A DNA stretch of 64,000 nucleotides from positions 14,302 to 78,301 of IMG/VR virus record IMGVR_UViG_3300023110_000023. The stretch is one strand, 5' to 3'. This stretch comes from a virus. A program made the position numbers and the translations under genes. Below are positions 1-64,000 of this stretch, in pieces (positions within the stretch are counted from its first letter, which is position 1; every line of letters begins with the position of its first letter). Under the pieces are notes generated by a model, which had not been told where the DNA came from, made no database searches, and worked only from the letters and a program-made list of their open reading frames with translations.

Positions 1-3
1 ACC

Positions 4-47
4 CCTTGCTCATCATGTTGATATTGCGAAGCATTGATATACCCCCT
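4..47 (+). repeat. 44-bp direct repeat copy 1, containing class I double-box promoter
   Basis: CCTTGCTCATCATGTTGATATTGCGAAGCATTGATATACCCCCT, identical to 417-460; proximal TTGATA 30 bp before ATG 64. Confidence 0.9.
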
Positions 48-63
48 TCACTTCCCAATCATC

Positions 64-414
64 ATGGCCGACCAATGCCCTATCAAGTGGTTCAATGCTG
101 ACGAGATGGTGGATGCAATCGCGTTCCCCGAAAACGAACAGCGTTCAATGACGATTCAAGAAGTCAAGGAGATGGCTTGGTCGGACATCATGGAACAGGT
201 TGAGTTTGAGTGTGATATTGAAGTCAATGGCTCGTTCATCACCGATAAGTTCGGAGTTCAGTCGTTCATCGTTTCAAAGTTCAAAGACGGCATCTATGGC
301 GAGGCAGTCATGTGCGTTGTTGGTTCTTACGATGTGGCTAAGGTTGTAGCCGACCGCCACGAAGGTGCTGGTGTAGTCCAATACGCAAGCAACGGCTTCG
401 TCATCGTGTGCTGA
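64..414 (+). CDS. hypothetical protein (class I cassette)
   Basis: Track start at 34 is the TTG of the promoter box; ATG 64 is 30 bp downstream, consistent with a leaderless start. Confidence 0.75.
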   Translation: MADQCPIKWFNADEMVDAIAFPENEQRSMTIQEVKEMAWSDIMEQVEFECDIEVNGSFITDKFGVQSFIVSKFKDGIYGEAVMCVVGSYDVAKVVADRHEGAGVVQYASNGFVIVC

Positions 415-416
415 TT

Positions 417-460
417 CCTTGCTCATCATGTTGATATTGCGAAGCATTGATATACCCCCT
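417..460 (+). repeat. 44-bp direct repeat copy 2, containing class I double-box promoter
   Basis: Identical to 4-47; TTGATA at 447, ATG at 477. Confidence 0.9.
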
Positions 461-476
461 ATGCGTAGCACTCACC

Positions 477-1148
477 ATGACCCGACACACTCACATCGTT
501 GAGTTCACGACCCCGATGACCGAGCGCGAACTGAAAGTCGCTATCGGCAAGGCCGTTTCCTTTGTCCAAGAAGAATCCAACACCATCGGGCGACAGGTTG
601 CCGAAGCAGATGCGTTCCGCTGGGTCAAGCACCCATTCACCAACATCACATACGAGGACAAGCAAGTGGACAAGCCCACCAGCCTCCCCTTTTACACCAC
701 GCACGACTTTCAGTTCCGCATGGTTGATGGAAAAATCCAGCAATACGCAGTTATCCACCTATCCATACAAGTCGGTGGACAGGTCAAGGGCGATTCAATG
801 ACTCTTGACGAGATGCCCGAAGACTTGACAATTGAAGGCATCAAGTTCGGCAAGACCCGAAGCCGTCAAGGAACGGTTTGGATGGACTTCACGGGCGATT
901 CTCACGCCTTCGTCTTCTTCGTTGCCTTGAAGGACTGCATGACCTTTGAAACGCCCGATGAACTTCGTGAGGCTTATGTCGGCTACGGGCGACAACCCAC
1001 AGACTTCCAACGCATTGACTCGGCAAGGGGATTCGCACACGGGATTCAGCGAGTCAAGGAAGCAAACGGCATCACAGCCGTTTCGGATGAGAACACCATC
1101 AAGGCCATCACGCTTCTCTATGAAGACCGCAAGGACAGGCAGGGTTGA
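477..1148 (+). CDS. hypothetical protein (class I cassette)
   Basis: ATG 30 bp after the promoter box; long ORF with genome-typical codon usage. Confidence 0.75.
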   Translation: MTRHTHIVEFTTPMTERELKVAIGKAVSFVQEESNTIGRQVAEADAFRWVKHPFTNITYEDKQVDKPTSLPFYTTHDFQFRMVDGKIQQYAVIHLSIQVGGQVKGDSMTLDEMPEDLTIEGIKFGKTRSRQGTVWMDFTGDSHAFVFFVALKDCMTFETPDELREAYVGYGRQPTDFQRIDSARGFAHGIQRVKEANGITAVSDENTIKAITLLYEDRKDRQG

Positions 1149-1149
1149 T

Positions 1150-4276: not shown

Positions 4277-6567
4277 GCGTGGCGATGGATAGCGTGGCTA
4301 AAATCACGGCCATCGTTGAAGCGCGTACGGCTGGCTTCAAGAAGGGAATGGCGGAGGTCGGAAGTGGGCTCACGGTTGCTGGTGGTCGTTTCAGCCGATT
4401 CGGTGAAACGGCTCGCAAGTCCTTCGTGGCGGTTCAAATCGGTGCTGTGCTTGCAGGTCAAGCCCTCGTTGCTGGCTTCGCAGTCAAGGCTTCAAAGGCG
4501 TTCATTGAGTTTGAGGATTCACTCCTTCGGACTTCGGCTATCATGGGCGGGAAGTCCATCTCGGACATTCAACGAGTGGCTGACGAAGTGATGCACTTGG
4601 GTGCTACAACCCGTTCCACAGCCGTTCAAGTGGGCGAGGCGGCGCAGATTTTGGCGTTGGCTGGTTTGAAGGAAGAGGACTTGGTGGACAACAAGGCACT
4701 TGAGCAATTGAACAACCTCGCAATCGCCGCTGGCGTTGATATGCCGACCGCCGCTGGCGTTGCGATTTCAGCCCTTAAAGGTATGGGAATGGAAACCAGC
4801 GAATTGGGTCGCGTGAACGATGTGATGATGCAAACAATGAGCAATTCGTTCACTACGGTTGAGTCGCTTGGGCAGACCATGAAGTTCCTTGCACCAACGG
4901 CTCGCGCGGCGGGCATTTCATTGGAAGAAGCATCCGCCGCGGCGGGTGCATTGGGCAACGCAGGGCTTCAAGGAACGATGGCTGGAACAGGTATGCGTAT
5001 GGCTATCAACAAACTCATCAAGCCGACTACGGAGGCTCGGAGGGTCATTGAAGACTTGAACCTCAATGTCTTCCGATTGACTCCAGCGGGTGAATCGGCT
5101 CGCAACAGTCTGCGAGGGGTTGAGGCTGGGTTGGAAGAAACTCGGCTTCAAGCGGAGGGCGTGAACCTTGAAATCAAGGCACTCAACAGCGAACTCAACG
5201 ACCTGTCCATTGACCAGCAGAAGAACAACCTTGAGATAGCCAAAATCCGCCAGCGAGCATCCAAGCAGGGTCGTGAATTGACCAAGCGTGAGATTGAACA
5301 GATTGAGCGTTTGGAGATGGCGAATGATGACTTGAACATCACCATGCAAGAACGCAGTTTGGAACTGTCCATCCAGCGAAGAGAGCAGACGCAGTTATCG
5401 GAGTCAATAAGCAGTCAAGAATCGGAGATGAACTCGCTCAACCAAACCATCACCGACCAAACTCAAGGACTGACATCGCTGACCGATTTGTTCCAGCAAT
5501 TGCGCGATGCTGGTGCGACAACATCGCAGATTCTCCAAGTCTTCGGTGTGCGTGGTGGAAACGCAATCAACGCCATTTTGGGACAGGCCGATGCCTTTGA
5601 GGAATTGGTCGCCAAGAACGAGGATGCAAACGGCAGAACTGCGGAGTTCGTTCAAACCATGACAGGCTCAACGCAGAACGCCCTGTTTGAATTGCAGTCA
5701 GCCTTCACAGCGTTGATGATAACAGTCGGTGAACAGTTCGCCCCGATGATAAAGGACACACTCGTTCCAGCACTCATCTTGGCGACTGAAAAATTGGGCG
5801 ATGAAGGCTTCGTGGAGGCGATGGGAGAAATCGCTGACAAATTGGTTGAGGTCTTGCCCCAATTGATTGATTCCTTCGTGCCTGTGCTGATTCAAATGGC
5901 GGAACAGTCGGATGACTTGATTTATGTCTTCGTGGCTCTCGCTCACGCTCTCCGATTCCTCATGGTTTTCATTGAGCCCATCTATGAATTGCTGGGCGGT
6001 ATCGGGATGATATTTGAGGGAATCGCGACCCTAAATCCACAGATGATTTTTGAGGGGCTTGGAAAGGCGGCGGGTGGTCTTGCACTCATATTGATGCCGA
6101 TATACAGGCTGGTTGAAGCGATTGCTGATTTCTTGGGCATTATTGACGAGGAAGGAACGGGCGCGCAACGGGCTGGGTCGGGTGCTTTGAAGGGGGCGGC
6201 GGCTGGTGCGTTGGTCGGTTCTGCTGTCCCCGTTGTCGGAACGGCGGCGGGTGCTGTCGTGGGTGGAATCATCGGTGCTGGGCTCACGATGTTCGCAGAA
6301 GGTGGAATCGTGAACGAAGCCACGCTGGGTGTCTTCGGTGAGGCTGGTTCGGAGGCTGTGATTCCGCTGGACAGACTCCCTGCATTGATGAGCGAATCAA
6401 TGGGAGGGCAAGCCTCAAAGCCCGAAACCACAGTCGTTTTCAGCGGGGACATCATCATTGGCGAAGGCAACAACCTTTCAAAGCGCGATGTTGAGCAGAT
6501 AATGGTGGAAACGATGCCGAAGGTGTTCAACCGATTCGGAATGCAAGGTGCAAGGGGTGTGATTTGA
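4273..6567 (+). CDS. tail tape measure protein (TP901-like core)
   Basis: HLGATTRSTAVQVGEAAQILALAG, ESLGQTMKFLAP, GLQGTMAGTGMR; coiled-coil; hydrophobic segments; C-term AEGGIV...GEAGSEAVIPL. Confidence 0.93.
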   Translation: MSVAMDSVAKITAIVEARTAGFKKGMAEVGSGLTVAGGRFSRFGETARKSFVAVQIGAVLAGQALVAGFAVKASKAFIEFEDSLLRTSAIMGGKSISDIQRVADEVMHLGATTRSTAVQVGEAAQILALAGLKEEDLVDNKALEQLNNLAIAAGVDMPTAAGVAISALKGMGMETSELGRVNDVMMQTMSNSFTTVESLGQTMKFLAPTARAAGISLEEASAAAGALGNAGLQGTMAGTGMRMAINKLIKPTTEARRVIEDLNLNVFRLTPAGESARNSLRGVEAGLEETRLQAEGVNLEIKALNSELNDLSIDQQKNNLEIAKIRQRASKQGRELTKREIEQIERLEMANDDLNITMQERSLELSIQRREQTQLSESISSQESEMNSLNQTITDQTQGLTSLTDLFQQLRDAGATTSQILQVFGVRGGNAINAILGQADAFEELVAKNEDANGRTAEFVQTMTGSTQNALFELQSAFTALMITVGEQFAPMIKDTLVPALILATEKLGDEGFVEAMGEIADKLVEVLPQLIDSFVPVLIQMAEQSDDLIYVFVALAHALRFLMVFIEPIYELLGGIGMIFEGIATLNPQMIFEGLGKAAGGLALILMPIYRLVEAIADFLGIIDEEGTGAQRAGSGALKGAAAGALVGSAVPVVGTAAGAVVGGIIGAGLTMFAEGGIVNEATLGVFGEAGSEAVIPLDRLPALMSESMGGQASKPETTVVFSGDIIIGEGNNLSKRDVEQIMVETMPKVFNRFGMQGARGVI

Positions 6568-9500
6568 TGGCTTCAACCAAACAAAGCATCACACAGACCT
6601 TCTCACGCATGAAGAACGGCCTTGCTGAACTCCAGCGGTGGTTTCCAGCCTTCATCAAGAACGATGGCGTTGGAGGGCTCTCCATTGACCCTGTGCTGTA
6701 TCGCACAAACTTCTCCGCCAAGACCCCAGCCCAAACGGGTGGCTACGATGACGAAGCCAGCCAAGCAGGGATTCGGGTGGAGGCAATCAACGATGACGGC
6801 ACAGATGTCAGCAACAACCCAACCATCGTCATATCGGGAAGCGGAACACTCAACGCCAAATGCACCATCAACCATGATGATGGAAGTGGCTCAACCGTCA
6901 TTCGCTTGATTGCACCATCGGGCGACTTGACAGGAAGTGGAACAAAAACACGCTCGCATGAGGGAATCGGGGATGCGACTTCCGACACGACCACGACCGC
7001 GCCCTTCCCCGTGTTCATGACGATTCAAGAACTGACCGAGATGCTTGACACCTATCGGCACATCGGAGATGGTGATGAAAACAAAAAGGCATGGCTTCCA
7101 CATGGGTTGGAAGGCGGAGGGCAACACGGCCACTCATCAGCATCGGCTTTGCCTTCGCTCGCTGGAGGCGACCCTCGCGAACCCACATCGGTTGCGTTCC
7201 CCACAGCCTCTCCGTATCGCGCAACCGTGTTCATGCCGATGATGCTGGACAACAACCAATTTGACAAACGAATCACGGGTGCGAGCAACGAGGTTGCTGA
7301 CTATACCTACCTCCTTGCGAACTTCGGTGGGGGCTACGATGTTCTTGACATTGACCGATACGACCCCGACCCCGAAGGCGAAGACTCGGCCACGATTCGC
7401 TACAAAACGGTGGGGTATTCGGGCGACCATTTGCTTGGGAAGAACACAGCACAGCAAGCATACAAAACCGCGCCCAGCGGAACGGCACACAACACAATGA
7501 CACACAACAACCCCGACTTATCGTTTGATGGAAGTGCAAGCCACTTCCCCAAATACCGAACCCGCTGTGCTTTGGCGATGTTCCTCAAAGACGGGACATA
7601 CACGCTCAAGGGCGGGACTCTCATTCCATACATCTATGACACGAATCGCGAGATTGGGGGCAACCAAACCAGCACAGTCCACGCGATTTGGGATGGGCTT
7701 GATGGAGAAGGCGACTTTGACATGACCGCTTCGGGCATTGAAAAACAATGCTCGGCTCAAATCACTCCGATGTTTGACTTCCTCCAGCCACCCATCACAA
7801 CCTCCGCACAGGGAGGCAATTTTGACTACGAGGTGGTCAATGGGTCAGCCAAGTTCAATTGGGCAAACTACATCACAGATGTGCAGTCAATCCAAGCCAG
7901 CGATTCCAACCTGTTCACAGATGGTGATGGAACGGACTTAGACCACATCACTACGGCACGACCGTTCTTGGTTCGCAACAACCCAGCAAGCGTTCCTGTG
8001 CGATACATTCGGAGGAACAATCTCATCCTGTCCATTTGGCTTGACTACACGAATGTCAGCGGTATCAGCGGTTCAACGATTCCTCAATTCACAGTCGGAA
8101 GTCCGATTGAACTGTGGGGACTCACGGGCGCGTTGGGCAGGGACACCTCTCAAGGTCGGAACATTGGGCATAAGTTCGGCCTCTATGAGTTCGCACCACG
8201 AAGCGAAGAAACGAATCCCGACACATATTCTTTGGGCGGGTTGAATCACAACGGATGGTGGATAATCAACGCGTACGATGACGATGGCGGTGGTCTTGAC
8301 GGAGAGTTTGTCGTGGATGACATTCTCGGCAACGGGGACTCAACCGAGTTCTATGGGGCTCGGATTGATATTCAAATCTATTCAAACGAAGCCCTTCCGA
8401 GTCAAGGGAATGTCAGCGCGTACGCGCCGACCAGCGGGTATGTTTGTCAAGGACTGATTGGAGGCGCGGAAAGCACTTCTTCTCACTATGGAACTGTTGC
8501 TTGGGCAACCAGCCAAAGCAATTCCCACCCCCAATTGCGACTCTTCGGTAGTGCGAGCGAGAAACTGTATGGAACGGGTGTTGGGTATATGGGCGGGGCA
8601 AACACCCCAGCGAACAATTTGCAGTCCCATGTTGGACATCGCTATTTTTACCCATCACGCATGGTTGATTCTTATGTTGATGAGGGAGAATGGGGTGCGA
8701 CAGGAAACACGGGGAATCTCAAGTTTTTCTTTGCCGATGACGCGACCGCGTTCCGTTCAATTGAATTGCAGAAGGCGACCGACTTGCTCTATTCCAATGG
8801 TGTTCCTGTTGTTCAAAGGGGAGATGGTTTGCTTCGGCTTCCAGCACCACAGGGCAAGGACATTGGTGCAAGGCGACTCTATTCCCTCACACAGACTCAC
8901 ATCACAGGCACATTCGTGAGTGAAGAAACTGACTTTCGCGGGCTCGGTTCGGACTTGGTTGAAAGCCTCCCAGCAACATGGTTGTCAAGAGGGCTTCACA
9001 TTCCCCTGTGGTCATACATTGACACGGCGAATGGCCGTCATGCTTGGGACTACATCAAGCCCATTGGTGCATCGGGAACATGGCTCTATGGGCGAAACCG
9101 ACCATTCCCAGCCCATGAACGAACAGGAACGCGATTGGGCTACAACGGAGGCGTTGCTCTTGACACGACCAAATACGGCTTGAGCGAGATGGGATGCTCG
9201 CAGATGTGGCTGGATTGGGAGATGAAGGCCAAAATCCCATTCCGAACAAATCAAATGGTGCGAATCACCTTTGACACCAACGAGGAACACTATGTCTTTG
9301 GTCGCCACGCTTTGATGTTTGATGACTTTCAAGGAACGATGAGGGGTGGTGCTGGCTTTTTGCCCCTGTATGATGGGAAGACATCAGCATCACCACTCAC
9401 ATTGAGTGCGTCATCATCGCCCGAAATCTATATTCGGGCTGGTGAAGGGTATTCAAATGGCTTCATAACGCACCCGTATGTGAACGGTGCGTTCACAGCA

Positions 9501-11303
9501 CCGCGTACGATAATTTGGTTCGGGGATGCTACATTCCTCAAGGATTCGGCTTGGTTGGGTGAGAAGGAATATCCGCTGGAGAACGCTGGTGGGAACTGTG
9601 GTTGGGGGTCAATGAACAACGGCTACGGCACAGGCACATCGTTCACCTATGCGGAAGGCTATCACACAGTCCGAGCAGTCTTCAACCAAGCAGGGATGAA
9701 CTTGCTCTTTGATGGTGTCAGTCAAGGCATTGACACCGAATCGGCCAAGACGGTGTATGGGCTGACGATTGAAAACTGCAAAATGGGCTTGTCCGTTTGG
9801 AATCAAAGCATCGGTGTTGATGAAAGCAGATTCCCCAAAGACGATGACGGCAACAGACTCGTTGCTGACAATCAAGCGTTGAGCAAGAATCAGTCCGATT
9901 TGCAGATTGACGAGATGGTATTGAGGTCAATACCGACTTCTGCGATGTTGCCGTTCAAGGTTCACACGATGAAACAGGACTTCTCCAATGTGGCTCGCTA
10001 TACCTCATTGACGGTTGAGGCTGACAACATTGACACCAAGAAGGGAATGAATGTCAAGGCGACCTTGATGACTCCATCCACCACGACCGTTGAGAACGAG
10101 GGGCAAGCCGTCATCAGCGGGTTTGAGAATGTGGATTTGGCGTTCAGCGGTGGCGTTGGTTCAATGGACTTGACCGACCTTCCAGCGTCAGCAATCGCAG
10201 ATGGGTTTGTGATTCGGTTTGACTTCTTCATCCCTAACAACACACAGACCGAATATCACCCGATTGATTGGTCAAAATTGCCCATCATTCGCTCTTGGAC
10301 TGTGGAATACGATGAGAAGCCAACGGCTTCGCTGGCGGTCATTGGGAACACATTCAACGGGGACATCACAGGAACAATCAACACCCGTGTTGGACACATC
10401 ATCTCGTTGCGTGGAACAGGCACGACAACCGATGTGGACAGAACCATCTCGGAGGTCAAGTTTGACTTCGGTGATGGGGCTTCAACGGGCTGGATAAAGT
10501 TCGCAGACCAAACGACTCAAAGCACGACATACGACATCGCTCACTCGTATTTGGCGAGTGGAACATACACCGTCAAGTGCTATTCTCGCGATGACTCCAA
10601 CAACGAATCGCTGGAATCAAACAACATCACCATCGTGGTCGCTAACGCGCCCCCTGTCGCCATCCTTCGTGCTGTGCCTTCAATGGTTCGTGCTGGGCAA
10701 GCAATCACCTTTGACGGCTCGGCATCGTATGACATCAACGCTGGTGGAACGCTGACGACATACACCTTCACCTTCGGAGATGGGTCGTCATCTGTGTCGG
10801 GTGCTTCGTCTTCGGTCAGCCACACATACGCCAACGGTGGTGAATATCAAGCCACGCTGGTCGTGGTTGATTCCGATGGGGCGACATCGCAGACTGCGAG
10901 CGTTGTTGTCAAGGTGCTTCCAGCGACCCTCGTTGTTCCGCTGGTTTTGAACACCAAGCCGAGAGCGTTCAGCCGAACTCGGTCAGCGAATCTCACTCAA
11001 ACGCCCGTATTGGACTCAATATACCCCGAACTCACAGACATGGGACAGCGAACTGACGAGTTCAAATTGGAAGGTTCGTTCCTCAAGCACACGGCCAATG
11101 CCGACATTGAGTTCATGGAAGAACTTCACCTGTCGGGCGCGCTGGTTGAAATCGTGTGGGAAGAGGTGAACTTCACAGGAACGCCAACGGGCAAGACATT
11201 CGTTGGTCGCATGACTTCGTTTGACTATCAGCGCGAGGGCGGTCGTCATGGCGAAACGCCATACACAGCGGTGTTCGTGAGGGAGGCTGGGCTCGGTGCT
11301 TGA
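6567..11303 (+). CDS. large virion/tail protein with two C-terminal PKD domains
   Basis: About 1578 aa; FDFGDG...HSYLASGTYTV and FTFGDG...HTYANGGEYQATL PKD signatures; follows tape measure; C-terminus resembles distal-tail domain. Confidence 0.8.
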   Translation: MASTKQSITQTFSRMKNGLAELQRWFPAFIKNDGVGGLSIDPVLYRTNFSAKTPAQTGGYDDEASQAGIRVEAINDDGTDVSNNPTIVISGSGTLNAKCTINHDDGSGSTVIRLIAPSGDLTGSGTKTRSHEGIGDATSDTTTTAPFPVFMTIQELTEMLDTYRHIGDGDENKKAWLPHGLEGGGQHGHSSASALPSLAGGDPREPTSVAFPTASPYRATVFMPMMLDNNQFDKRITGASNEVADYTYLLANFGGGYDVLDIDRYDPDPEGEDSATIRYKTVGYSGDHLLGKNTAQQAYKTAPSGTAHNTMTHNNPDLSFDGSASHFPKYRTRCALAMFLKDGTYTLKGGTLIPYIYDTNREIGGNQTSTVHAIWDGLDGEGDFDMTASGIEKQCSAQITPMFDFLQPPITTSAQGGNFDYEVVNGSAKFNWANYITDVQSIQASDSNLFTDGDGTDLDHITTARPFLVRNNPASVPVRYIRRNNLILSIWLDYTNVSGISGSTIPQFTVGSPIELWGLTGALGRDTSQGRNIGHKFGLYEFAPRSEETNPDTYSLGGLNHNGWWIINAYDDDGGGLDGEFVVDDILGNGDSTEFYGARIDIQIYSNEALPSQGNVSAYAPTSGYVCQGLIGGAESTSSHYGTVAWATSQSNSHPQLRLFGSASEKLYGTGVGYMGGANTPANNLQSHVGHRYFYPSRMVDSYVDEGEWGATGNTGNLKFFFADDATAFRSIELQKATDLLYSNGVPVVQRGDGLLRLPAPQGKDIGARRLYSLTQTHITGTFVSEETDFRGLGSDLVESLPATWLSRGLHIPLWSYIDTANGRHAWDYIKPIGASGTWLYGRNRPFPAHERTGTRLGYNGGVALDTTKYGLSEMGCSQMWLDWEMKAKIPFRTNQMVRITFDTNEEHYVFGRHALMFDDFQGTMRGGAGFLPLYDGKTSASPLTLSASSSPEIYIRAGEGYSNGFITHPYVNGAFTAPRTIIWFGDATFLKDSAWLGEKEYPLENAGGNCGWGSMNNGYGTGTSFTYAEGYHTVRAVFNQAGMNLLFDGVSQGIDTESAKTVYGLTIENCKMGLSVWNQSIGVDESRFPKDDDGNRLVADNQALSKNQSDLQIDEMVLRSIPTSAMLPFKVHTMKQDFSNVARYTSLTVEADNIDTKKGMNVKATLMTPSTTTVENEGQAVISGFENVDLAFSGGVGSMDLTDLPASAIADGFVIRFDFFIPNNTQTEYHPIDWSKLPIIRSWTVEYDEKPTASLAVIGNTFNGDITGTINTRVGHIISLRGTGTTTDVDRTISEVKFDFGDGASTGWIKFADQTTQSTTYDIAHSYLASGTYTVKCYSRDDSNNESLESNNITIVVANAPPVAILRAVPSMVRAGQAITFDGSASYDINAGGTLTTYTFTFGDGSSSVSGASSSVSHTYANGGEYQATLVVVDSDGATSQTASVVVKVLPATLVVPLVLNTKPRAFSRTRSANLTQTPVLDSIYPELTDMGQRTDEFKLEGSFLKHTANADIEFMEELHLSGALVEIVWEEVNFTGTPTGKTFVGRMTSFDYQREGGRHGETPYTAVFVREAGLGA

Positions 11304-12310: not shown

Positions 12311-15300
12311 ATGGTCGTCAGCACAGGGGGGCTTCCAGCCACCCATTCCGAACTGACCCAGCCTCTTGGGTCAAAAGGACTGCCCATGACGCTCGTTTTT
12401 GCTGACCACTACGATGACACCATCGGGAACACTCCTGTGGACAGGAAGGTGCTTTTTGACACCTCCCTGCACCAACCTCGCCCCACAGGGTCGGGGACTT
12501 CCATCGTTGCCCCAATCGCGCCCAGCGTGATTCTCACGAACATGAGTGGGACAACCCTCGCATACCCGACCAGCGATTCAACCAATCACACGATGAGCCC
12601 TCGCAACGCTGGACTGACCACGAACCTCTCCCCACCGTCTTTGAATCACGAATCGGGCGCGTTGGAGTTCGGTCAAATCGTTCACGATGTCAGTCGCTCG
12701 CACCACGATGCGACAGAATTGCGTTCAAGCGTTCCATTTGCTCGCCTTTCACTCTCGGAGGTGGGTCGGTTCACCGCGTACGAAAGAAGGCGATACGCAA
12801 GCGGAAGACCAGCAAATCACACATTCCAACAGACCAAGACGACCGATGACGATGTGGTGGGTTCAATTGACATGGGCTGGGGTGCTTATGCGGGAAGTGG
12901 GACATTCAATTGCGAAGTCCCAGCGTTCACACAGGGAGGGCGTGTGGAGGCAATCACACACTACGCTAAGGCAGACTTGCCCAGCAACGCTATGGGTGTG
13001 TCGTGGGGCGATGCTCACAACGCCACATTCCTCACCACGCTGGGTTCAGCACCCATCGCTCAAACGGGGGCTTCCAGCATGGGCATCGCAGTCCAAGACG
13101 ATGACAAACTCTTCTCATCCCATTGGAACTTGAATCTCGGAGTTCGCCAACCGATTCTCGCTTCGGGAACTTCAATCTCCAGCCCCGATGGTTCGCCCGT
13201 ATCGGTGTCAATATCCGAAGACGCAGATTCCGTGAATCTGCTGACATCTGTTGAAACGATTCAATCCATTTTGGTGGCCGACCGCTTCTCCGATGGAACT
13301 GCCTCGCCCAGCGATGAAGACAACATGACGCTGGGGCGCGTTGATTTGGGCAACCACACCGTTGCCGATTCGTGCGGTTTGATTGGCTACGAGGGCGTTA
13401 TCACGGCCACAGCCTTCTTCTCCATCTCCAAGAACTCCGACCCCTCACAGACGCAAGGGGCGGTCAGTTTCACCGATGACATGACCTATGCTGGACTGAA
13501 CATTCAAGTCCATTCGGGAACGACTGTGCGAAGGAATGGCGACCCAAACAAACAGGGCGGGTATGGACTGACTCCATTCGCCCCATACCGATACGGAAGC
13601 GATGGAACGAGCGTTGATGTCATGACCGATGCAATCACGACCTCCGCACACCGAACAGGAAGCGGGTCGTTCTCCACCAGCGATGCAAACCGCACCGTCT
13701 TCTCAACGAGGCGAGATACCCACTACAACACGGATGCAACGCAGGTGCTTCCGCTGGGTGCTGGCGAGAGTGAAATCAACGCTGGTTCGGGCGTGTTCCG
13801 ACAGCAACACCAAGCAACCGACCGACTGTTTGGCGACACAGCGAAGGCTGGCGATTCTTGGGCTGGGACACAGACCTTGAGTTCGGGCTGGCTATCGGAC
13901 TCAATACCGACCAAAGTGCAAATCATTCCACAGGTCATCGGCTACACCAATGTCCAAGTGTCAGTCGGGGAATTGAAAACAGCCACTCATCCATCGGCTC
14001 AACCCATCACATTCCGCAAGCCAATCGTGGACTATCATGTGCTGGTTTCAGTCGCAGACCGAAGTGAATTGGTCGTCAAATCCGACACCAGCGTGGGCAA
14101 CGATTCGGTTGGCGACCCAACCTCTCGGAACGACCCGAATCCAAACCGACTCCACGCCAACATGGACTTGAGCGACCTGCCTTGCACCATTTATCACGGA
14201 ATCGTGCGTATCAATCCCGATACGCTGGAACAGATTTACCTTGACCCAGCCGACCTTCCAGCAGGGTATGATGCGATTTCAGCAGACTGTCCATTTTCAG
14301 TCATGCCTCGCCACCGAAAAATGTCGGTGGATGGGAAGGTGTCAATGGGCTGGGGATTGCATCAAATCACTCCATTCCGACCTCTCGCATCACGCCAATG
14401 GGTGCGTGTTCCCAAACTGTGTTCAGCCATCCAATCGGGCGGATTTTATCAGCGAGGGGGCGTATCTCATCTGTGGGATGCTGATGTGTATGGTGGCGAA
14501 CTCTTCGTGGGTGCTGACATCATTGACGCAACCGACTTCGCTGTTGAAACGACCAAAGACGGCAAGCCGTATTTTGGGCTGTGGGGCAACGGCCAAATCG
14601 TTCCAAATGGAAGCCATGACCCAGCCATGCCTCAAGGCTGTGAACTGATGGTGTTCCGCTATTCTCCGAAGAAAGACCCGTATCACCCATCCACCAAAAA
14701 CACATCACCGAGCGACAATCCGATTCGGGATGCACTCGGAACGAATGCTTCTGCGGTGAGTGGAACGACCACTTATTCGGCTCAATATAAGACAGGGTTC
14801 ACCATCACCGATGAACGACTTCTCGCTGATTCGGCTTGGGAAGTTCACGATTGGGTGATTCCCCAATTGGAACTCATGCGGTATCTCGGCAAGGAAGAAA
14901 AGTCATCCATGCGACACCCGAAGCACTCGGAGAGCGATGGAACAGAAGTCATCCTTCACCCGACTGTGCATTGTTCCAGCCTTCGCATCATGGATGATGG
15001 AAGGATGCTGATGGCGATGGTTCATAGGGACTACATTGAAGATGTCAGCGAGTTCCCGTCTGCTGATATTGGCTATCCAGCGAACCCCGATTTGAGCATC
15101 GGTTCGTGTCCCGTTGGCTATGTTTATTCGGATGGTCAATGCGTTCCAATCACATCGCTGGGCGCGTCTGCCGATTCGGGTTTCCACATTGACCCAACCA
15201 GCGGAGATGAGATGGAGGGGAGTGGCGACCCACAGGCGTTGTCGGCTGGGACAGGAGTGCAACCATCGGGCGACAATTTCAGCCAATACCCAACATGGAA

Positions 15301-43465: not shown

Positions 43466-43531
43466 GCTGTATCACAATGGTTTGTCGGACTACGAGCCGA
43501 CACCCAAACCGAAACACAGGAGATGAAAAAT

Positions 43532-45847: not shown

Positions 45848-45891
45848 TCAATGGTTCAGTTCCATAAGTGGAAGTGTTTATATGGTGCAAC
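45848..45891 (+). promoter_or_regulatory. promoter shared only with MoxR AAA gene
   Basis: TCAATGGTT-N8-TAAGTGGAA-GTGTTTATATGGTGCAAC; ATG 45906 at +29 from TTTATA. Confidence 0.7.
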
Positions 45892-45905
45892 GGGCTGGGA
45901 GGGGT

Positions 45906-51412: not shown

Positions 51413-51696
51413 TTGCATGGGCATCTAAGGTCAAACTTCTCAACGATTCGGTCGTCATGCTCGTATTCAATGAACGACTCAAAGCCGTTGGCTCAATGAT
51501 TGAGCAGGGCAACGATTGGCTGGTTCAAAATGGCGACCTCGTTCCATTTCAAATCAAGGCAGATGGCTGTCCCGACCCGATGGATTTCATGTTCAAACTG
51601 ACATCGCCACGCAACGAGGATATTGAAACCGATAAGCCGTTGATGGAGTTCACGGCTGGTTCGGGTGAACGCTGGGAAGTTTGGGAAGTGAAGTGA
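51403..51696 (+). CDS. hypothetical protein
   Basis: Overlaps both neighbours; SD GGAGG. Confidence 0.6.
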   Translation: MDLIAWASKVKLLNDSVVMLVFNERLKAVGSMIEQGNDWLVQNGDLVPFQIKADGCPDPMDFMFKLTSPRNEDIETDKPLMEFTAGSGERWEVWEVK

Positions 51697-54431
51697 TGGG
51701 TCGCGAGCAAGAACTCCGAGATTGGTTGGCGACCAACGCGCCCGATGTCGTGGTGCGAAAGAACACGACATACAGGGAACTCGCTCGGCTGGTGCAACAG
51801 CAATCGGGCGGTGTCCCCATCGTCTTGGGCGACCTTGATGACGAGTTCCGCGACCCGCGTACAACCACGACAACGACCACTACAACGACCGCCACAGGCA
51901 CAGGAACAGCCGACTTGGAGATTGGGAATGTGAACACCGTTTCGGCTTCTGCTGGTGCGTCAGCGACCATCACGACAGCGACCGATGGAACTCGCAAACT
52001 CAACCTCAACATTCCGAGAGGCGACACGGGCGCGTCGGGTGCAAACGGAAGCGATGGTGCGAATGGGACTAACGGTGCTGACGGACAAGACGGTGCAGAC
52101 GGTTCGCCAGCGACCATCACAATCGGGACAGTTTCAACGGGCTCGGCTGGGTCAAGTGCAACGGTCAGCAACAGCGGGACTTCATCTGCTGTGGTGCTGG
52201 ACTTCACGATTCCAGCAGGGGCTACGGGTGCGACAGGTGCGACAGGTGCGACAGGTGCAACGGGTTCTGCTGGTGCAGACGGGGCAGACGGGGCTGATGG
52301 TGCAGACGGCACATCGGCAACCATCGCAGTCGGAACGGTGTCCACAGGGTCAGCAGGTTCGTCAGCAACGGTTGTCAATTCGGGAACTGCGAGTTCCGCT
52401 GTCTTTGACTTCACGATTCCGAGAGGTGCAGACGGCACGAATGGAACGAATGGAACAAACGGGGTTGATGGTGCAGATGGGGCAGATGGGGCAGACGGGG
52501 TTTCACCGACTGTGGCTGTTGGAACAGTCAGCACAGGGTCAGCGGGGAGTTCTGCGACCGTTGTGAACAGCGGAACATCGTCAGCGGTCGTCTTGGATTT
52601 CACCATCCCAAGAGGCGACACGGGCGCGACAGGTGCTACGGGTGCAACAGGCTCGGCTGGTGCTGATGGTGCTGATGGGGCAACCCCAACCATCACAATC
52701 GGGACAGTCAGCACAGGTGTGGCTGGGTCGTCTGCGACAGTCAGCAATTCGGGAACGCCCACAGCGGTCGTGCTGGACTTCGCGATTCCAGCGGGGGCAG
52801 ATGGGGCAGATGGGGCTGATGGAACTGATGGGGCTGACGGCAACACGATTGACATTTCAGCCCTCCCAGCGAACACGGCAATCGCTGATGCCGACCTTCT
52901 TCTGCTTGATGACGGGGCTAACGGCACGAACCGAAAAATCACCTTCACAGCAGTCAAGAATTGGATAAAAGGCTACGGTGTGAAACACGCTGACCAATTC
53001 GGGAACGCTGGAATTGAGGGCGGTGTGAACGAACTTCGGATTCGGGATTCACGCTATGATGGCGATGTTCACCCCAACGAGTTCCCCGACAAAACCGTGT
53101 CATTTGATTTCACAGACGACATCACAGGTTCACCAAACTCTTGGGATGCAGTCATCACGATGAAGGGCTGGTCGGACAATTATCGGGCATATCAAATATG
53201 GTCGTCTGCGTCTTCGGGTGGGCAGTCTGTGGATGAAGTTCCGCTATTCTTCCGTAGTGGCGAGGAAGATGTGCAAGACGGCTGGGGTCAAACGAAGGAG
53301 ATTCTCACTTTCGCTGGAACAGCCCCACGCGTTGATGGTGCTACGGGACAAATCCTCCAAACCGATGGTGCTGGAACTTTGTCTTGGGTTGATTTGCCCG
53401 CAGGTAGCGGTGGAACACCAGCGGGCGTATTGGGCTCAATACAGTTCAACGATGGTGCTGGTGGATTCGCCAGCGATGATGCGAACTTGCTTTGGGATGA
53501 TGCGAACAACCGATTGGGCGTTGGGACAAACTCGCCAAGCGAAACGCTTCATGTCAAAGGGAATCTGCTGGTTGAAGACCCGTCATCAACAGGGTCATCC
53601 GACCATTTGCTTGAAGTCAAATCGGGTTCATCAGCAACCCCCGACAACGCTCGCATTCTCGTTTCAGCAGACACCGATGCAAAATTGCCGATGTTCAACC
53701 TGCGTGATGTGGAGGCGAATGGCGGGACATTTAGCCCGAATTATTCGGCTTATCTTGCCCTTGACCGAGCAACGCCTGTCGTATCGGGTTCGGCTCAAAA
53801 TGACCTGTTGATTGCTAACGGGAACTACAACAAAGACATTCACCTTTGCACAAACAATGCAGGGGATGGTTCGGGCGTGGAGGCTCGCTTAACGATTGCC
53901 TCGGATGGCGATGTTGGGATTGGAACAACAGCACCCGACAACCCACTCCATGTGGTCGGGGCGGGCGACTTCCCCTTCCGTGTTCAAGCAGACGAAGGCA
54001 ACCTTCGGATGAACAAATACGGCCACCTTCACATTCAAAACGACAACACATCACCACCCTCCGCAAGCACAATTGACAGTCCCTTATGGTCTGTCGGCCA
54101 GCGTGATGGCGGTCAATTGGACATCGCCTTCGGCTCGCTCGCAACGCAATTGGTGTCAGCCAACGACAAACTGCTGGAACTCAAGCGGGATGCGAACTCG
54201 GCAACAGGGGCGAAGCAGATTGGCTTCTTGGGGGCAACAGCGGTCAGCCAGCAGTCTGCCTCATTCTTTGACCACACGGGCGCGTACACAGCCCCAGCAC
54301 CTCCACCACCACCGATGCCTCCGTCAGCCGACCCAACCTTTGACGCTGAACTTGATGCTCGGTTCATCGCGATTGAGCAGTCCATCGGTGAAATCATCAC
54401 GGCTCTCAAGAACTTCGGCTTGCTGTCGTGA
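51696..54431 (+). CDS. collagen-like fibre protein (tail/head fibre)
   Basis: G-A-D/G-A-T/G-T-N triplets alternating with four TIGTVSTGSAGSSATVxNSGTxSAVxDFTIP repeats; fibre motifs WDDANNRLGVGTNSP and GDVGIGTTAP. Confidence 0.85.
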   Translation: MGREQELRDWLATNAPDVVVRKNTTYRELARLVQQQSGGVPIVLGDLDDEFRDPRTTTTTTTTTTATGTGTADLEIGNVNTVSASAGASATITTATDGTRKLNLNIPRGDTGASGANGSDGANGTNGADGQDGADGSPATITIGTVSTGSAGSSATVSNSGTSSAVVLDFTIPAGATGATGATGATGATGSAGADGADGADGADGTSATIAVGTVSTGSAGSSATVVNSGTASSAVFDFTIPRGADGTNGTNGTNGVDGADGADGADGVSPTVAVGTVSTGSAGSSATVVNSGTSSAVVLDFTIPRGDTGATGATGATGSAGADGADGATPTITIGTVSTGVAGSSATVSNSGTPTAVVLDFAIPAGADGADGADGTDGADGNTIDISALPANTAIADADLLLLDDGANGTNRKITFTAVKNWIKGYGVKHADQFGNAGIEGGVNELRIRDSRYDGDVHPNEFPDKTVSFDFTDDITGSPNSWDAVITMKGWSDNYRAYQIWSSASSGGQSVDEVPLFFRSGEEDVQDGWGQTKEILTFAGTAPRVDGATGQILQTDGAGTLSWVDLPAGSGGTPAGVLGSIQFNDGAGGFASDDANLLWDDANNRLGVGTNSPSETLHVKGNLLVEDPSSTGSSDHLLEVKSGSSATPDNARILVSADTDAKLPMFNLRDVEANGGTFSPNYSAYLALDRATPVVSGSAQNDLLIANGNYNKDIHLCTNNAGDGSGVEARLTIASDGDVGIGTTAPDNPLHVVGAGDFPFRVQADEGNLRMNKYGHLHIQNDNTSPPSASTIDSPLWSVGQRDGGQLDIAFGSLATQLVSANDKLLELKRDANSATGAKQIGFLGATAVSQQSASFFDHTGAYTAPAPPPPPMPPSADPTFDAELDARFIAIEQSIGEIITALKNFGLLS
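51920..52840 (+). repeat. internal coding repeats of the fibre gene
   Basis: Four near-identical ~33-aa modules plus one degenerate copy, separated by Gly-X-Y runs. Confidence 0.85.
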
Positions 54432-54652: not shown

Positions 54653-54900
54653 CACAGGGCTCAACGACTCTCATCATGGCTTCCGACATCACTCTTCCAC
54701 CTAAGTGCAGGTGGGTTGCGAGTGGGAAGAATCCGACAGCATACATCATGAATCAATACGACCAATGCGTGTGTCAAATCTGCCTCAAGCCAATCACCCA
54801 GCAGAACACCAAATGCACTCGCAGACTCAAGGAGAAGTCCTGTGGTCAATGCTATCTCAAGTGGAAGGCATTGGAACGAGAGCGAATGGGCTTGTCTTGA
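54649..54900 (+). CDS. Zn-finger protein
   Basis: CQICLK...CGQCY. Confidence 0.6.
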   Translation: MTQGSTTLIMASDITLPPKCRWVASGKNPTAYIMNQYDQCVCQICLKPITQQNTKCTRRLKEKSCGQCYLKWKALERERMGLS

Positions 54901-54926
54901 TAACGGTGGGACAGCCCGTTCCACGC

Positions 54927-56363
54927 ATGGCCTCATACGAAGTCGTTCTTGGCGACTGCCTCACCGAACTCAAAGCGATGGAGGGTGGGCGATTCCATTC
55001 GTGCATCACCTCCCCTCCGTATTTCATGTTGAGGGACTACGGCACAGACGAGCAGATTGGGAACGAGGAATCGCTGGATGACTACATCGCCAAAATGGTT
55101 GAGGTGATGCGTGAGGTTCGCAGGGTGCTTCGGGATGACGGAGTGCTGTGGCTGAACATCGGTGATTCATACAACGGAAGCGGGGGTGCTGGAGGCGACT
55201 ACAACAAAGGTGGCTGGAAGGAAGGACAACCGCGATACGGCAAGAAGGATGACCCACGATTCAAGCCGAAGGACTTGATGCTCGTTCCACATCGGCTGGC
55301 GATTGCTCTCCAAGAGGATGGTTGGTTCTTGCGACAGGACATCGTTTGGGCGAAGAACAACCCGATGCCCGAACCAGCGAAGGACAGGTGCGTGAAGGCT
55401 CACGAATATGTCTTCCTCCTGTCCAAATCTCGCCACTATTTCTTTGACCACATCGCCATCCAAGAGCCCGTTGCAGACTCCAAACGCACGAACTACGCCT
55501 GTGGCGGTCGGACAAACGGAATCAACCACGACAGGAACGACAACGACATGAGGGAACGGTCGCTGGGAATCGTGTTCAAGACTCGCAACAAACGAAGCGT
55601 GTGGACTGTCAATACGAAGGCATACGCTGGGGCTCACTTCGCTGTGTTCCCACCCGAACTGATTGAACCATGCGTCTTGACCACGCCAACCAAGTGCTGT
55701 GCAGAATGTGGACAGGGCTACGAGAGGGTCGTTAAAGACCGAGCCTTGACTGACGAGGAAGTGCATGACTTGATGATGACACCCGAAGGGGATGATGTTC
55801 CATACACGGTCAAGGAACTTGGACACGGCAGAAGTGCTGTGGTTGAGTTTAGGGACTTGCCTCCACCGAAGGTGCTGGCGACCTATCTCAACGATGCGAG
55901 GAAGAGGGCTGGCTTGACCATCAAGGAAGTGGAGGAACGGCTGGAGTCAAGAGCCCCACATCATTGGTTTGAGATGGGCGATTCGCATTCATACCCGTCT
56001 GCTGACGAATGGCCGACCGTCAAGGAACTGTTTGACCTTGACGACCGATACGATGAGCAGATGACCAATGTGAAGTTCAAGAGTGGAATCAAAGGCGAGA
56101 ACGAGCCCACAGTCTATGGCTGGGAGAAGGCTTGCGTTTGTGAAACTGACGAAACCAAACCAGCGGTCGTGCTTGACCCGTTTGGCGGAAGTGGAACTAC
56201 GGCTGGAGTGGCGGTCAAGAATCAGCGAGATGCTGTGCTTATTGAAGTCAATAGCGAATACGCCAAACTCATCCCGAACCGTGTCAAGTCAATCGTTGGC
56301 TACGACCTTGCAGAAGGCGAGGCTTCGGTGGACACCCAAACTTTTGATGATTGGTTCAATTGA
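54927..56363 (+). CDS. DNA N4-cytosine (beta-class amino) methyltransferase with inserted HTH
   Basis: ITSPPY catalytic motif N-terminal, VLDPFGGSGTT SAM motif C-terminal, HFAVFP; start 30 bp after class II box at 54897. Confidence 0.93.
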   Translation: MASYEVVLGDCLTELKAMEGGRFHSCITSPPYFMLRDYGTDEQIGNEESLDDYIAKMVEVMREVRRVLRDDGVLWLNIGDSYNGSGGAGGDYNKGGWKEGQPRYGKKDDPRFKPKDLMLVPHRLAIALQEDGWFLRQDIVWAKNNPMPEPAKDRCVKAHEYVFLLSKSRHYFFDHIAIQEPVADSKRTNYACGGRTNGINHDRNDNDMRERSLGIVFKTRNKRSVWTVNTKAYAGAHFAVFPPELIEPCVLTTPTKCCAECGQGYERVVKDRALTDEEVHDLMMTPEGDDVPYTVKELGHGRSAVVEFRDLPPPKVLATYLNDARKRAGLTIKEVEERLESRAPHHWFEMGDSHSYPSADEWPTVKELFDLDDRYDEQMTNVKFKSGIKGENEPTVYGWEKACVCETDETKPAVVLDPFGGSGTTAGVAVKNQRDAVLIEVNSEYAKLIPNRVKSIVGYDLAEGEASVDTQTFDDWFN

Positions 56364-58125: not shown

Positions 58126-58126
58126 G

Positions 58127-61631: not shown

Positions 61632-62184
61632 ACTCGGCTCTCGCGATGCGTTGGATGCAATCCGACTTGCTGACCTATTCAAGTGCGAAGTCGTGGCTTG
61701 GGAATGCAACCCAAGCGCGATTGAACTGTGCAAGCACCACATTGGCGACAGGACTGACATCACGCTGGTGGAGAAGGCCGTGTGGTCGGAGAGCAAACTG
61801 CTGACCTTCCGACCCGTTGTGAACGGCAATCTCGGTGCATCATCGGTGTTCAAGGCGAACCACGCATACCCACATGAGAAGCCATACGAGCAAGTGGAGA
61901 TAACTGTGGAGGCGATGCGAGTGGATGAGTGGTGGGGCGACCGTACGCGACCGAACCTGCTGTGCATGGACTTGCAGGGCGCGGAGATGGAAGCGTTGGA
62001 ATCGCTGGGCGACATGATTGACGAGATTGACTACATCATCACGGAGGGTCAATGGAAGCGTCTGTATCACGACACTCCGCTGATTGAGGACATCTCCGAC
62101 TTCTTGGTTGAGCGTGGCTTTCGGCTCACCAAGTTCAAGGAAGTGAACGATTGGTTTGGCGACTTCCTGTTCAGTCGTGTGTGA
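61570..62184 (+). CDS. FkbM-family SAM methyltransferase
   Basis: VLELGSRD, VAWECNP, VEAMRVD, LLCMDLQGAEMEAL. Confidence 0.9.
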   Translation: MSGAYRHFTAYITKPIRSVLELGSRDALDAIRLADLFKCEVVAWECNPSAIELCKHHIGDRTDITLVEKAVWSESKLLTFRPVVNGNLGASSVFKANHAYPHEKPYEQVEITVEAMRVDEWWGDRTRPNLLCMDLQGAEMEALESLGDMIDEIDYIITEGQWKRLYHDTPLIEDISDFLVERGFRLTKFKEVNDWFGDFLFSRV

Positions 62185-62494
62185 TGTAAAGCGCGCCCGT
62201 TGATTCAACGAATGCACCCACCACGACAACGATTCCCTTGAGGAAGAGGATTCCGTTTAAGTCAATGTCAATGACCCCGCCCGATTCCTTGTCCCTGTCG
62301 TGCGATGGGATGAATTGGAACTTGGCCGTTGCTGGAAGCGTGTCGGTTTGGTTCGCATCATAGATGGAGATGAGGGGAAGCGTGGCGGAGTTTGAGGGTT
62401 TGTCAAAATACCCTTTGACACCAGCGACCCGTGTGGAATATGAGAACACCAAAGTCGTTCCATCCGATACAATCGGCAACGAGATGATAGGCAT
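62171..62494 (-). CDS. small beta-sandwich putative virion protein (paralog A)
   Basis: C-term GILFLKGIVV; class III box GTCTTAACCC 31 bp upstream on minus strand. Confidence 0.65.
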   Translation of the reverse strand: MPIISLPIVSDGTTLVFSYSTRVAGVKGYFDKPSNSATLPLISIYDANQTDTLPATAKFQFIPSHDRDKESGGVIDIDLNGILFLKGIVVVVGAFVESTGALYITHD

Positions 62495-62635
62495 GAACAG
62501 ACGATTCGCATATGCGGGTTAAGACGGTATTGACCCCGATAAATCTGAATCTCAATGCTTCCCCACGACTGTATTTAAACATGGGAATCTGCAACACCGA
62601 TTTGGTGATAAACCGCAGAACTGTTGATATGGGTC

Positions 62636-62932
62636 ATGAGCAACGCCAAAGTCGTTGAAACAGCCGATGCAACCTTGATTGGAAGCGAACCAATCATGCT
62701 CTTGAGCATCGTAGTCGGCACGACAGAACCCCCGCCAGCAGGTGCATTCACCGTTGATTTGCATAACGCCAATTCCGCTGGAGATACGCTGAACGATTCC
62801 AACAGGAAGGTTCGCCTGTCCATTGGGGCTCAATCCAATGGCTTCGCACACTCCTTTGATGGAGTCATGTTCCCGAAGGGGCTGGTCGTGAAATGCTCAT
62901 CGGCTGTTCCCATCACGGTGGAATACGAATGA
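62636..62932 (+). CDS. small beta-sandwich putative virion protein (paralog B)
   Basis: C-term GVMFPKGLVV; class III box GTGATAAACC at 62605. Confidence 0.65.
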   Translation: MSNAKVVETADATLIGSEPIMLLSIVVGTTEPPPAGAFTVDLHNANSAGDTLNDSNRKVRLSIGAQSNGFAHSFDGVMFPKGLVVKCSSAVPITVEYE

Positions 62933-63258
62933 CCCAAGCCCCGACCCTCATCCTGTGTCCGTCTGCTGAAAACCCCAAGCAATTCCGTCTTGGGATTTTC
63001 AAGGGAATCGCGATTGAACATATCGTGAACATCAATGCCGAGATTTTGGGCGATGCAATCAAGGTCGTCAAGCAGATATTGGGCTCAATCACCGAATTGG
63101 ATTTGTCTGCGTGGAACGGGGATTTCAGCATGGGACACCTTCGGGTCTTGAATCCCGAAGCAGACGCGCCCCGCTGGATGATTGACTTCTCCCCCAAAGT
63201 CCCCGAAGAAGTGAACGCTGTGTCCATCACACCCGTTCCTCCGCCTAACGGTTTTTGA
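62929..63258 (+). CDS. hypothetical protein
   Basis: ATGA overlap with upstream gene. Confidence 0.65.
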   Translation: MTQAPTLILCPSAENPKQFRLGIFKGIAIEHIVNINAEILGDAIKVVKQILGSITELDLSAWNGDFSMGHLRVLNPEADAPRWMIDFSPKVPEEVNAVSITPVPPPNGF

Positions 63259-63282
63259 TGGTGGGACAAAGTGAGTGGGAAC

Positions 63283-63465
63283 ATGGACAAAGAACCACAG
63301 GTTCGGGAATGGGTTCTTCCCGCCCTGTCATCAACCAGCGCGATTGGTGAAAAATTAGTCAGCATCCTCATGGCGAACCCGAATCAAGTTCTGCGAGCGT
63401 GTCGCATCGGAGAGGAAATCCTGTTCGTTGCTGTGGAGGGTGAGGTATGGAAGAAAGCCGACTGA
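63283..63465 (+). CDS. small hypothetical protein
   Basis: Class II-like box TTTTTGATGGTGGG at 63252. Confidence 0.55.
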   Translation: MDKEPQVREWVLPALSSTSAIGEKLVSILMANPNQVLRACRIGEEILFVAVEGEVWKKAD

Positions 63466-64000
63466 CAAATCCATTGTCGGTTGAACACCTCCTTCAAGTC
63501 CAAGCCCACTATCGCTCGCTTCGTGAATCGGACAATTTCATCAAGGAACTTCCGCCCAAGAGCGATTGGATTCGCTGGCGATACCTTGACGATGACATCA
63601 ATCACAAATTGGCTTCCGTGAGGTTTGAGCAATCTCCGACCATCAGCATCCATGCGTACGCGTTTGATTGGAACGACCCGCTTCTGCTGGAGGGGCTGAT
63701 TCGCCACGAACTCTTGCATCTCGTATGGGGCGCGAGCGAGGGTCATGGTGCGTTGTTCACGGCATCCGAAGAGGGCTGGGACAAGTTCCACCGCTACAAA
63801 CGGCAGAAGCGGAGGTTCTTCTCGGCCTTGCACTCGGAATCGGGGCGAGAGTTCTCGTATGCGTGTGCAAATTGTCAGCGAATGGTTCACCTAAACCGCG
63901 CCCTGCGACCCAATTCGGCTTGTCTTGAGTGTTGTAAAGCATTCAACAACGGCAAGTGGTGTGAAGCATATACATTGATAAGGGTGGGCGACCTCCCGTG
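63447..64000 (+). CDS. SprT-like metalloprotease with Zn ribbon (runs to window edge; not in ORF track)
   Basis: MEESRLTNP...LIRHELLH...EGHGALF...YACANC...CLECC; SD GGAGG/GGTGA; last codon TG. at 63999-64000. Confidence 0.85.
   Translation, partial: MEESRLTNPLSVEHLLQVQAHYRSLRESDNFIKELPPKSDWIRWRYLDDDINHKLASVRFEQSPTISIHAYAFDWNDPLLLEGLIRHELLHLVWGASEGHGALFTASEEGWDKFHRYKRQKRRFFSALHSESGREFSYACANCQRMVHLNRALRPNSACLECCKAFNNGKWCEAYTLIRVGDLP
63975..63988 (+). promoter_or_regulatory. class II promoter for the next gene beyond the window
   Basis: TTGATAAGGGTGGG. Confidence 0.65.

Follow-up and report, generated by a model that had tools for sequence, protein, structure and literature searches.

The window, a 64,000-nt stretch of DNA comprising bases 14302–78301 (G000:C1:14302-78301) of the virus record IMGVR_UViG_3300023110_000023 (G000), lacks dozens of short DNA words so completely that certain dipeptides cannot be encoded at all, and amino acids found in related viruses have been replaced. 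The near-complete genome G000, a single contig of 78,301 bp with a GC content of 0.535, belongs to a tailed archaeal virus from salt-marsh metagenomes. We consider it most likely that every target word is being removed by ongoing purifying selection from sequence-specific, methylation-sensitive endonucleases (Type II-like) that the virus population encounters. All coordinates below are positions in the window unless another contig is named, and all the window genes described lie on the plus strand.

An initial annotation of the window listed nine words as absent: GATC, AGCT, TCGA, ACGT, CCGG, CTAG, GGNCC, CCNGG and GTNAC. Exact counts are zero for all nine, both in the window and in the full 78,301 bp. 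The expected number per motif is 300–400 from base composition and 60–500 from a first-order Markov model. Shuffles of synonymous codons that kept every protein and the codon usage yielded 41–488 occurrences per motif, the lowest value in any of 100 shuffles being 27. The absence of the nine motifs is real and very far past chance. The list was correct as far as it went, but it understated the extent of the loss. Further words at zero on both strands are AGTA, GGNNCC, GCWGC, CASTG, CTSAG and TGSCA, with the qualification that TACT, the reverse complement of AGTA, is present once. There are also ~12 asymmetric 4- to 5-mers at zero, among them ACTGG, CCAGA, CAGAG, TCAGG, GGACG, GGAGC, GTCTC and AGTTG. 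In total, ~50 words are significant under a maximal-order Markov expectation, their summed expectation is ~8,000 forbidden sites (~1 per 10 bp), and ~19% of all hexamers are unused. An enumeration of maximal degenerate zero patterns returned 257 overlapping patterns, which are too redundant for counting enzyme specificities. In a separate observation on GCNGC sites (4636–46146), GCWGC is absent, and most of the 16 GCSGC sites that remain read GCGGCG and lie inside CGGCG/CGCCG; this may be a context-dependent exemption, additional to the one for CGCG described below.

The avoided words are enriched for the palindromes typical of Type II enzymes. For example, 51 of the 64 6-bp palindromes are at zero, as are 10 of 32 W/S-centred pentamer classes and 6 of 16 tetramers. 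Among hexamers that contain no absent 4- or 5-mer, 25 of 38 palindromes are missing versus 52 of 1,706 non-palindromic pairs. GGCC is present 83 times, yet TGGCCA, CGGCCG and AGGCCT have zero occurrences, and these three palindromic flank combinations are the sole gaps among NGGCCN sequences. Could a mutational or structural process have produced this pattern without any selection by nucleases, for example through deamination of methyl-cytosine or a general intolerance of palindromes? Many of the absent words are palindromic, several contain CpG, and the dinucleotide TA is strongly depleted, all of which would fit. However, other palindromes are common (CATG 426, TGCA 278, CGCG 208, CAATTG 51), and the abundance of CATG, TGCA and CAATTG means that the loss is word-specific rather than a general dislike of palindromes. 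Words made only of A and T have been lost, as have asymmetric words; the word sets of close relatives differ; and the loss is total, not graded. An exemption for sites overlapping CGCG is also unexpected under mutation bias. A process of this kind is therefore very improbable as the cause.

The consequences of word loss extend to the proteome. In the 70 called genes (22,935 aa) from which dipeptide statistics were drawn, Gly-Pro, Pro-Gly and Val-Thr, all of which had been noted as missing, occur zero times against expectations of 78, 78 and 102, respectively. Three further dipeptides, overlooked at first, are also at zero: Trp-His (8.4 expected), Trp-Gln (12.8 expected) and Pro-Trp (16 expected). 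Ala-Ala (16 versus 155 expected) and Trp-Pro (2 versus 16) are depleted ~10-fold. Given the absent words, the dipeptides without any permitted codon pair are Gly-Pro, Pro-Gly, Val-Thr, Trp-His, Trp-Gln and Pro-Trp, which is exactly the observed zero set. The cause of dipeptide loss is the DNA word and not the protein, because the words are gone whatever the frame or strand, non-coding DNA included. The converse explanation, in which selection against these dipeptides in proteins, or an artefact of assembly or design, comes first and the loss of DNA words is secondary, has nothing specific in its favour and next to no probability. It is refuted by the protein-preserving shuffles, which restore 110–180 GGNCC, CCNGG and GTNAC sites; by a similar purge in 28 independently assembled relatives; and by its presence in runs of at least five studies. 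Moreover, a change from Gly-Pro to Gly-Lys requires two separated base changes, so base-calling error is not responsible.

The large virion proteins illustrate the extent of this constraint. A 2,265-aa virion protein (12311..19108) with no Pfam match lacks Gly-Pro, Pro-Gly and Val-Thr altogether. PKD domains have a consensus stretch of pGtYtVtL, and the corresponding stretches in the 1,579-aa tail protein (6564..11303) read SGTYTVKC and GGEYQATL, with neither Pro-Gly nor Val-Thr, as had been proposed. A collagen-repeat protein of 916 aa (51681..54431) has five Gly-X-Y runs of 6–11 triplets (GATGATGADGADG...), all of them free of proline, in agreement with the reported lack of Gly-Pro.

Relatives of G000 provide natural controls. 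Using a PolB profile, 28 viral contigs were gathered from many metagenomes, with 46–67% PolB identity; the VWA protein, used on its own to scan viral contigs, retrieved none, such that the PolB alignment was needed. An additional relative, contig L042, is binned in a “Methanobacteriota archaeon” metagenome-assembled genome (MAG; G004). All 28 relatives show total word loss of a similar style, each with a different set of words, and G000 is the most extreme of the genomes examined. Avoidance of GATC (23 of 26) and AGCT (25 of 26) is clade-wide, and TCGA, ACGT, CCGG, CTAG, GTAC, CGCG, GGNCC, CCNGG and GTNAC vary among close relatives. The PolB tree implies 1–8 state changes per motif. For GGNCC, there are at least three state changes and three separate avoiding lineages. 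In the closest complete relative (G001; L004-L008), CGCG, GTAC, ACGT, CCNGG and GTNAC are at zero, and TCGA is present 699 times, twice the expectation. The PolB gene of another relative (G002; L009:4034-6622) contains one in-frame TGA, for which sequencing error, gene splitting and recoding are candidate explanations.

Aligning each G000 protein pairwise with its best match in these relatives shows what has replaced the forbidden dipeptides. Where relatives have Gly-Pro (n = 153), G000 has Gly-Ala (59), Gly-Lys (18) and others; where they have Val-Thr (209), it has Val-Ser (44) or Ile-Thr (25), among others; and where they have Pro-Gly (49), it has Pro-Asp, Ala-Gly or Glu-Gly. None of the three is conserved at a single position, whereas other dipeptides in the same alignments are conserved at 20–63%. 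The proposal that word loss forced amino acid substitutions is supported at orthologous positions. Most forbidden sites would have been lost through synonymous codon choice and ordering, leaving GGN-CCN, CCN-GGN, GTN-ACN, TGG-CAN and CCN-TGG as the codon pairs that cannot be recoded and at which the amino acid would have to change. Since no synonymous recoding is possible there, replacement follows (GP to GA or GK, VT to VS or IT, PG to PD, AG or EG), and the replaced positions would include tolerant ones within Walker A loops.

Individual motifs make the same point. The coordinates and strings given in the initial annotation for five of them (39019, 45081, 44003, 36078 and 6337) are all correct, and most but not all of the links it drew to avoidance were borne out. 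First, the Walker A motif of the small RFC subunit reads GKAGTGKT (39019..39042; gene 38878-39915). In relatives that permit GGNCC, 17 of 20 have Gly-Pro at this position (GPAGTGKT or GPAGVGKT, and once GPPGVGKT); all six avoiders have Gly-Lys, Gly-Asn or Gly-Arg. Second, the MoxR/AAA_5 ATPase has GAKGCGKT (44003..44026; gene 43409-44701), 95% of permitting relatives have Gly-Pro (GPKGCGKT), and the G003 group has Gly-Gly. Third, the tape-measure protein reads GEAGSEAVIPL (6337..6369; gene 4273-6567), compared to GEAGPEAIIPI in G001, which permits GGNCC, and GEAGREALVPL in G003, which avoids it. Fourth, a PD-(D/E)XK nuclease (gene 30789-32006) has Val-Ser in place of Val-Thr (31437..31442); the residues are Val-Thr in 88% of relatives that permit GTNAC and Val-Ser in all four GTNAC-avoiders aligned. 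Outside the window, at L041:2484, a conserved Val-Thr of the large terminase is likewise Val-Ser in all GTNAC-avoiders. Fifth, in a VWA/CobT-like protein (gene 45882-48110), the conserved DGQPSGP motif reads SGA at its end (47907..47912). This motif and the MoxR Walker A motif are instructive in two relatives (L015/L038), where just two GGNCC sites remain in 22.7 kb; they encode the Gly-Pro of these motifs, the two most conserved Gly-Pro pairs. These last surviving sites directly show the conflict between a DNA-word constraint and a protein constraint.

Other proposed cases are weaker. The hairpin of the XPF/ERCC4-HhH protein reads LPKVG (36078..36092; gene 35355-36233), and its attribution to CCNGG avoidance holds in part: LPGIG is found in CCNGG-permitting genomes but is limited to L016-L018, and other permitting genomes have Arg or Asn at that position. 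The AAA ATPase annotated as the large RFC subunit has GDAGVGKT (45081..45104; gene 44970-45839), and here the Gly-Asp is not attributable to avoidance, since the same pair occurs in relatives that do not avoid GGNCC, an outcome that the initial annotation had itself named as refuting. The claim of substitutions in catalytic motifs is overstated, because the positions altered in the Walker A loops are the variable x's of GxxxxGK[ST] and not catalytic residues.

Two of the words, GTAC and GCGC, have been retained in G000 at some sites, and the context of these sites is informative. All 35 surviving GTAC sites overlap CGCG (as CGCGTAC or GTACGCG), as do 103 of 106 surviving GCGC sites (as CGCGC or GCGCG); for both words, the sites in the window span 2645–63662. 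In 21 relatives, at most 1 in 46 GTAC sites overlaps CGCG, and the overlap of GCGC with CGCG is partial (0–77%). Hexameric palindromes with a CGCG core also survive in G000 (TCGCGA 36, ACGCGT 15, GCGCGC 11). The virus encodes a DNA methyltransferase (54705..56363; PF01555, E 8e-42) with SPPY at residue 103 and FGGSG at residue 493. The order of these elements, with motif IV (S-P-P-[YF]) before the target-recognition region and FxGxG at the C-terminus, together with membership of PF01555, identifies the enzyme by its sequence as having the beta-class order of the N4-cytosine type; its relatives in PDB include both N4-cytosine and N6-adenine enzymes. From the geometry of the overlap, methylation of CGCG at its first C would also mark the C of a GTAC that overlaps it; in a GCGC that overlaps it, the mark would lie on the inner C of the opposite strand. 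The enzyme is the candidate for modifying the first C of CGCG and so blocking cleavage at overlapping GTAC and GCGC, which would be tolerated solely in that context. CGCG as the target and N4-methylcytosine (m4C) as the product are suggested by the overlap footprint and the SPPY motif. The G001 orthologue of the methylase lacks a central region of ~160 aa present in the G000 enzyme, suggesting that its target differs.

What removes these words? First, avoidance is a property of the virus and not of host composition, a conclusion that comes from the relative L042 and is indirect for G000. GATC, AGCT and CTAG are all at zero in the L042 viral contig, and the cellular contigs of the same MAG have GATC, AGCT and CTAG at normal levels, with observed/expected numbers of 307/228, 157/228 and 270/228, respectively. 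A separate observation is that the viral and cellular contigs of this MAG (L042 and L043-L052) share some compositional skews, with GANTC and TCGA ~2-fold above expectation and CGCG and GCGC 4- to 10-fold low; these shared skews possibly represent a host-signature link. Second, selection is ongoing, since new variants avoid making absent words. G000 occurs in 12 salt-marsh runs and probably derives from them, and metagenomes from other studies (aquatic, marine and aquaculture) contain strains that diverge by 2–5%. The 40 variant positions listed (of 704), plus indels, create no absent word under a straightforward reading of the deletion coordinates, and a single ACTGG under an alternative reading. 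The expectation is ~16 in 40, given that 27.8% of random substitutions create an absent 4- or 5-mer and 39.5% create any absent word. The loose ends of some metagenome contigs hold AGTA and GGTCC; these ends do not align to G000, may come from other organisms, and were not used. Given the palindrome bias, the virus-specificity, the CGCG overlap in the presence of a methylase, and the ongoing selection, we infer that the selective agents are sequence-specific, methylation-sensitive nucleases.

The source of such nucleases could be the restriction-modification (R-M) systems of the host. Euryarchaeal R-M systems have been documented for GATC, CTAG, GGNCC, GTAC and AGCT (PMC11033074), and Poseidoniales are a plausible candidate host. 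Several points nevertheless weigh against the main explanation. No cognate nuclease has been identified. The 41 MAGs around the L042-bearing MAG have 0–3 DNA methylase genes each (PF02086 in 5 MAGs, PF01555 in 19, mostly in one copy, and PF00145 in 9), although MAGs are incomplete and often miss defence islands, and the tie between these MAGs and the host of G000 is indirect. To our knowledge, ~50 specificities is far above the number in any single known host. The number of systems is overestimated, because TA depletion (0.30) and the overlap of constraints account for part of the absent 6-mers. The variant test covers a small fraction of the variant positions. Lastly, when GGNCC avoidance was compared with loss of the RFC-small proline in phylogenetically independent pairs, there were 3 pairs, 2 of them concordant and 0 discordant, so the test is underpowered. 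A single host with ~50 systems is not supported; such a number requires either diverse, shifting systems across the host population or agents besides host R-M. The original interpretation is supported in part, in that the loss is word-level, virus-specific and accompanied by replaced residues, but not in its claims for catalytic motifs and the large RFC subunit; its idea that the missing words fingerprint the host's R-M repertoire is a conjecture.

An alternative source of nucleases is the virus itself, which might degrade host DNA, or competing viruses or mobile elements. Near-universal avoidance of GATC and AGCT in the clade is what a conserved viral gene would yield, and this clade-wide component may stem from an agent that is conserved. 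In candidate host MAGs, GATC and AGCT are at normal levels and methylases are few; the virus carries PD-(D/E)XK and XPF nucleases, and Magrovirus-type viruses have been described with restriction-enzyme-like nucleases (PMC12999244). However, 70 genes are too few to provide ~50 specificities, none of the ~63 proteins scanned was recognized as a member of a restriction endonuclease family, and the remaining words vary between close relatives in a way that fits accessory, fast-moving systems. We judge it unlikely that nucleases of this origin, rather than host R-M, account for the pattern. Either a repertoire that shifts across the host population and escapes MAGs, or enzymes encoded by viruses and mobile elements, could supply the many specificities.

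What would selection by nucleases mean for the biology of the clade? One speculative reading, which we offer tentatively and regard as somewhat doubtful, is that the word set is a readable, fast-changing barcode of nucleases that reveals a large defence repertoire hidden from MAGs, whether in population-level R-M islands or in virus and mobile-element nucleases. G000 would then be a generalist that has accepted ~450 forced amino acid changes in return for host range and uses m4C at CGCG as a shield. Genomes of the candidate host lineage are small and carry few methylase genes. More generally, the case shows how far DNA-level immune evasion overrides protein-level constraint. The clade is a natural experiment in the cost of restriction avoidance, in using nothing but virus sequence to read which nucleases and host ranges exist among uncultured marine archaea, and in identifying virus methylase targets through shield footprints. 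There are practical implications, too, since such genomes distort profile searches that expect GPPG-type motifs.

The genome has other distinctive features. The dinucleotide TA is at 0.30 of expectation across the whole genome, and TGA is the stop codon in 64 of the 70 called genes. As a result, off-frame stops are rare and there are 178 open reading frames of ≥100 aa, many of them spurious and antisense; composition-based gene callers break on such genomes. The gene set comprises an HK97-type capsid module, PolB, RFC, an XPD-like helicase, XPF-HhH and MoxR-VWA, with TerL, portal, protease, major capsid protein, PolB and RFC all identified. Searches of G000 proteins at E ≤ 1e-4 gave no Pfam recognition of MCM, AEP primase, PCNA, RadA or ligase. 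Among 50,697 phage records, megablast found no match to 24 kb of the sequence, and the only protein matches were PolB proteins of haloviruses or cyanophages (~24% identity) plus one weak capsid match. The structural cluster nearest to the G000 PolB carries mostly archaeal labels (Methanobacteriota, Thermoplasmatota). A 561-aa family 4 glycosyltransferase (36322-38007; GT4 match; PF20706, “Family 4 glycosyltransferase in conflict systems,” E 6e-10) is kept in G001-G003 and could act on DNA or virion proteins. An FkbM-family methyltransferase (61540-62184; PF05050, E 3e-10) has orthologues in L016-L018.

How does G000 compare with known systems? Restriction-site avoidance was reportedly described by Sharp in 1986, Karlin in 1992 and Rocha in 2001. 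Virulent double-stranded DNA phages and archaeal viruses show, like G000, a virus-specific scarcity of short, mostly palindromic Type II words, and avoidance is strongest in non-temperate double-stranded DNA viruses (Rusinov 2018, PMC6286503). That survey does not mention amino acids, and a review describes avoidance as being achieved through synonymous changes (PMC8410138). Avoidance in the literature is usually partial and affects one to a few motifs; in G000, ~50 words are exactly zero and six dipeptides are abolished. Another parallel is the staphylococcal Rosenblumvirus phiAGO1.3, which lacks GGNCC (Sau96I) and GATC (Sau3AI) altogether, as G000 does, a loss linked to a broad strain range (PMC6346686). 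Total loss of GGNCC means that Gly-Pro is necessarily forbidden. The genomes of these phages are AT-rich, and hence few GGNCC sites are expected in them. In the passages considered, the amino acid consequence of GGNCC loss is not discussed, and the phages are ~18 kb with a known host enzyme, in contrast to the hundreds of expected sites per motif and the uncultured host of G000 (PMC6346686).

Phage orphan DNA methyltransferases guard against restriction, and methylation at an overlapping site can block cleavage, for example by RsaI at GTACG. G000 resembles such systems in having a virus-borne beta-class PF01555 enzyme and sites that survive solely at the overlap with a second motif. It differs in that methylation would be joined to avoidance instead of substituting for it, with CGCG suggested as the target by the footprint. 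G000 also resembles the Magroviruses (Magrovirales), which are marine or estuarine archaeal tailed viruses of 65–100 kb that encode a PolB, an RFC clamp loader and nucleases of their own (PMC5434244), with relatives binned with euryarchaeal MAGs. The hallmark of the Magrovirales is an HK97-type module with PolB, PCNA, RFC, AEP, MCM, RadA, SSB and ligase, of which PolB and RFC are recognized in G000, in contrast to MCM, AEP, PCNA, RadA and ligase. The words “restriction” and “palindrom” are absent from the magrovirus paper (Philosof 2017, PMC5434244), and two profiles of the International Committee on Taxonomy of Viruses (PMC12999244, PMC10768690) mention restriction solely within gene or product names. 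Restriction avoidance has long been known, and G000 is an extreme case of this known anti-restriction strategy. What it adds is clade-level controls, repeated replacements in separate lineages, an example of last-surviving sites, and the footprint of a putative methylation shield.

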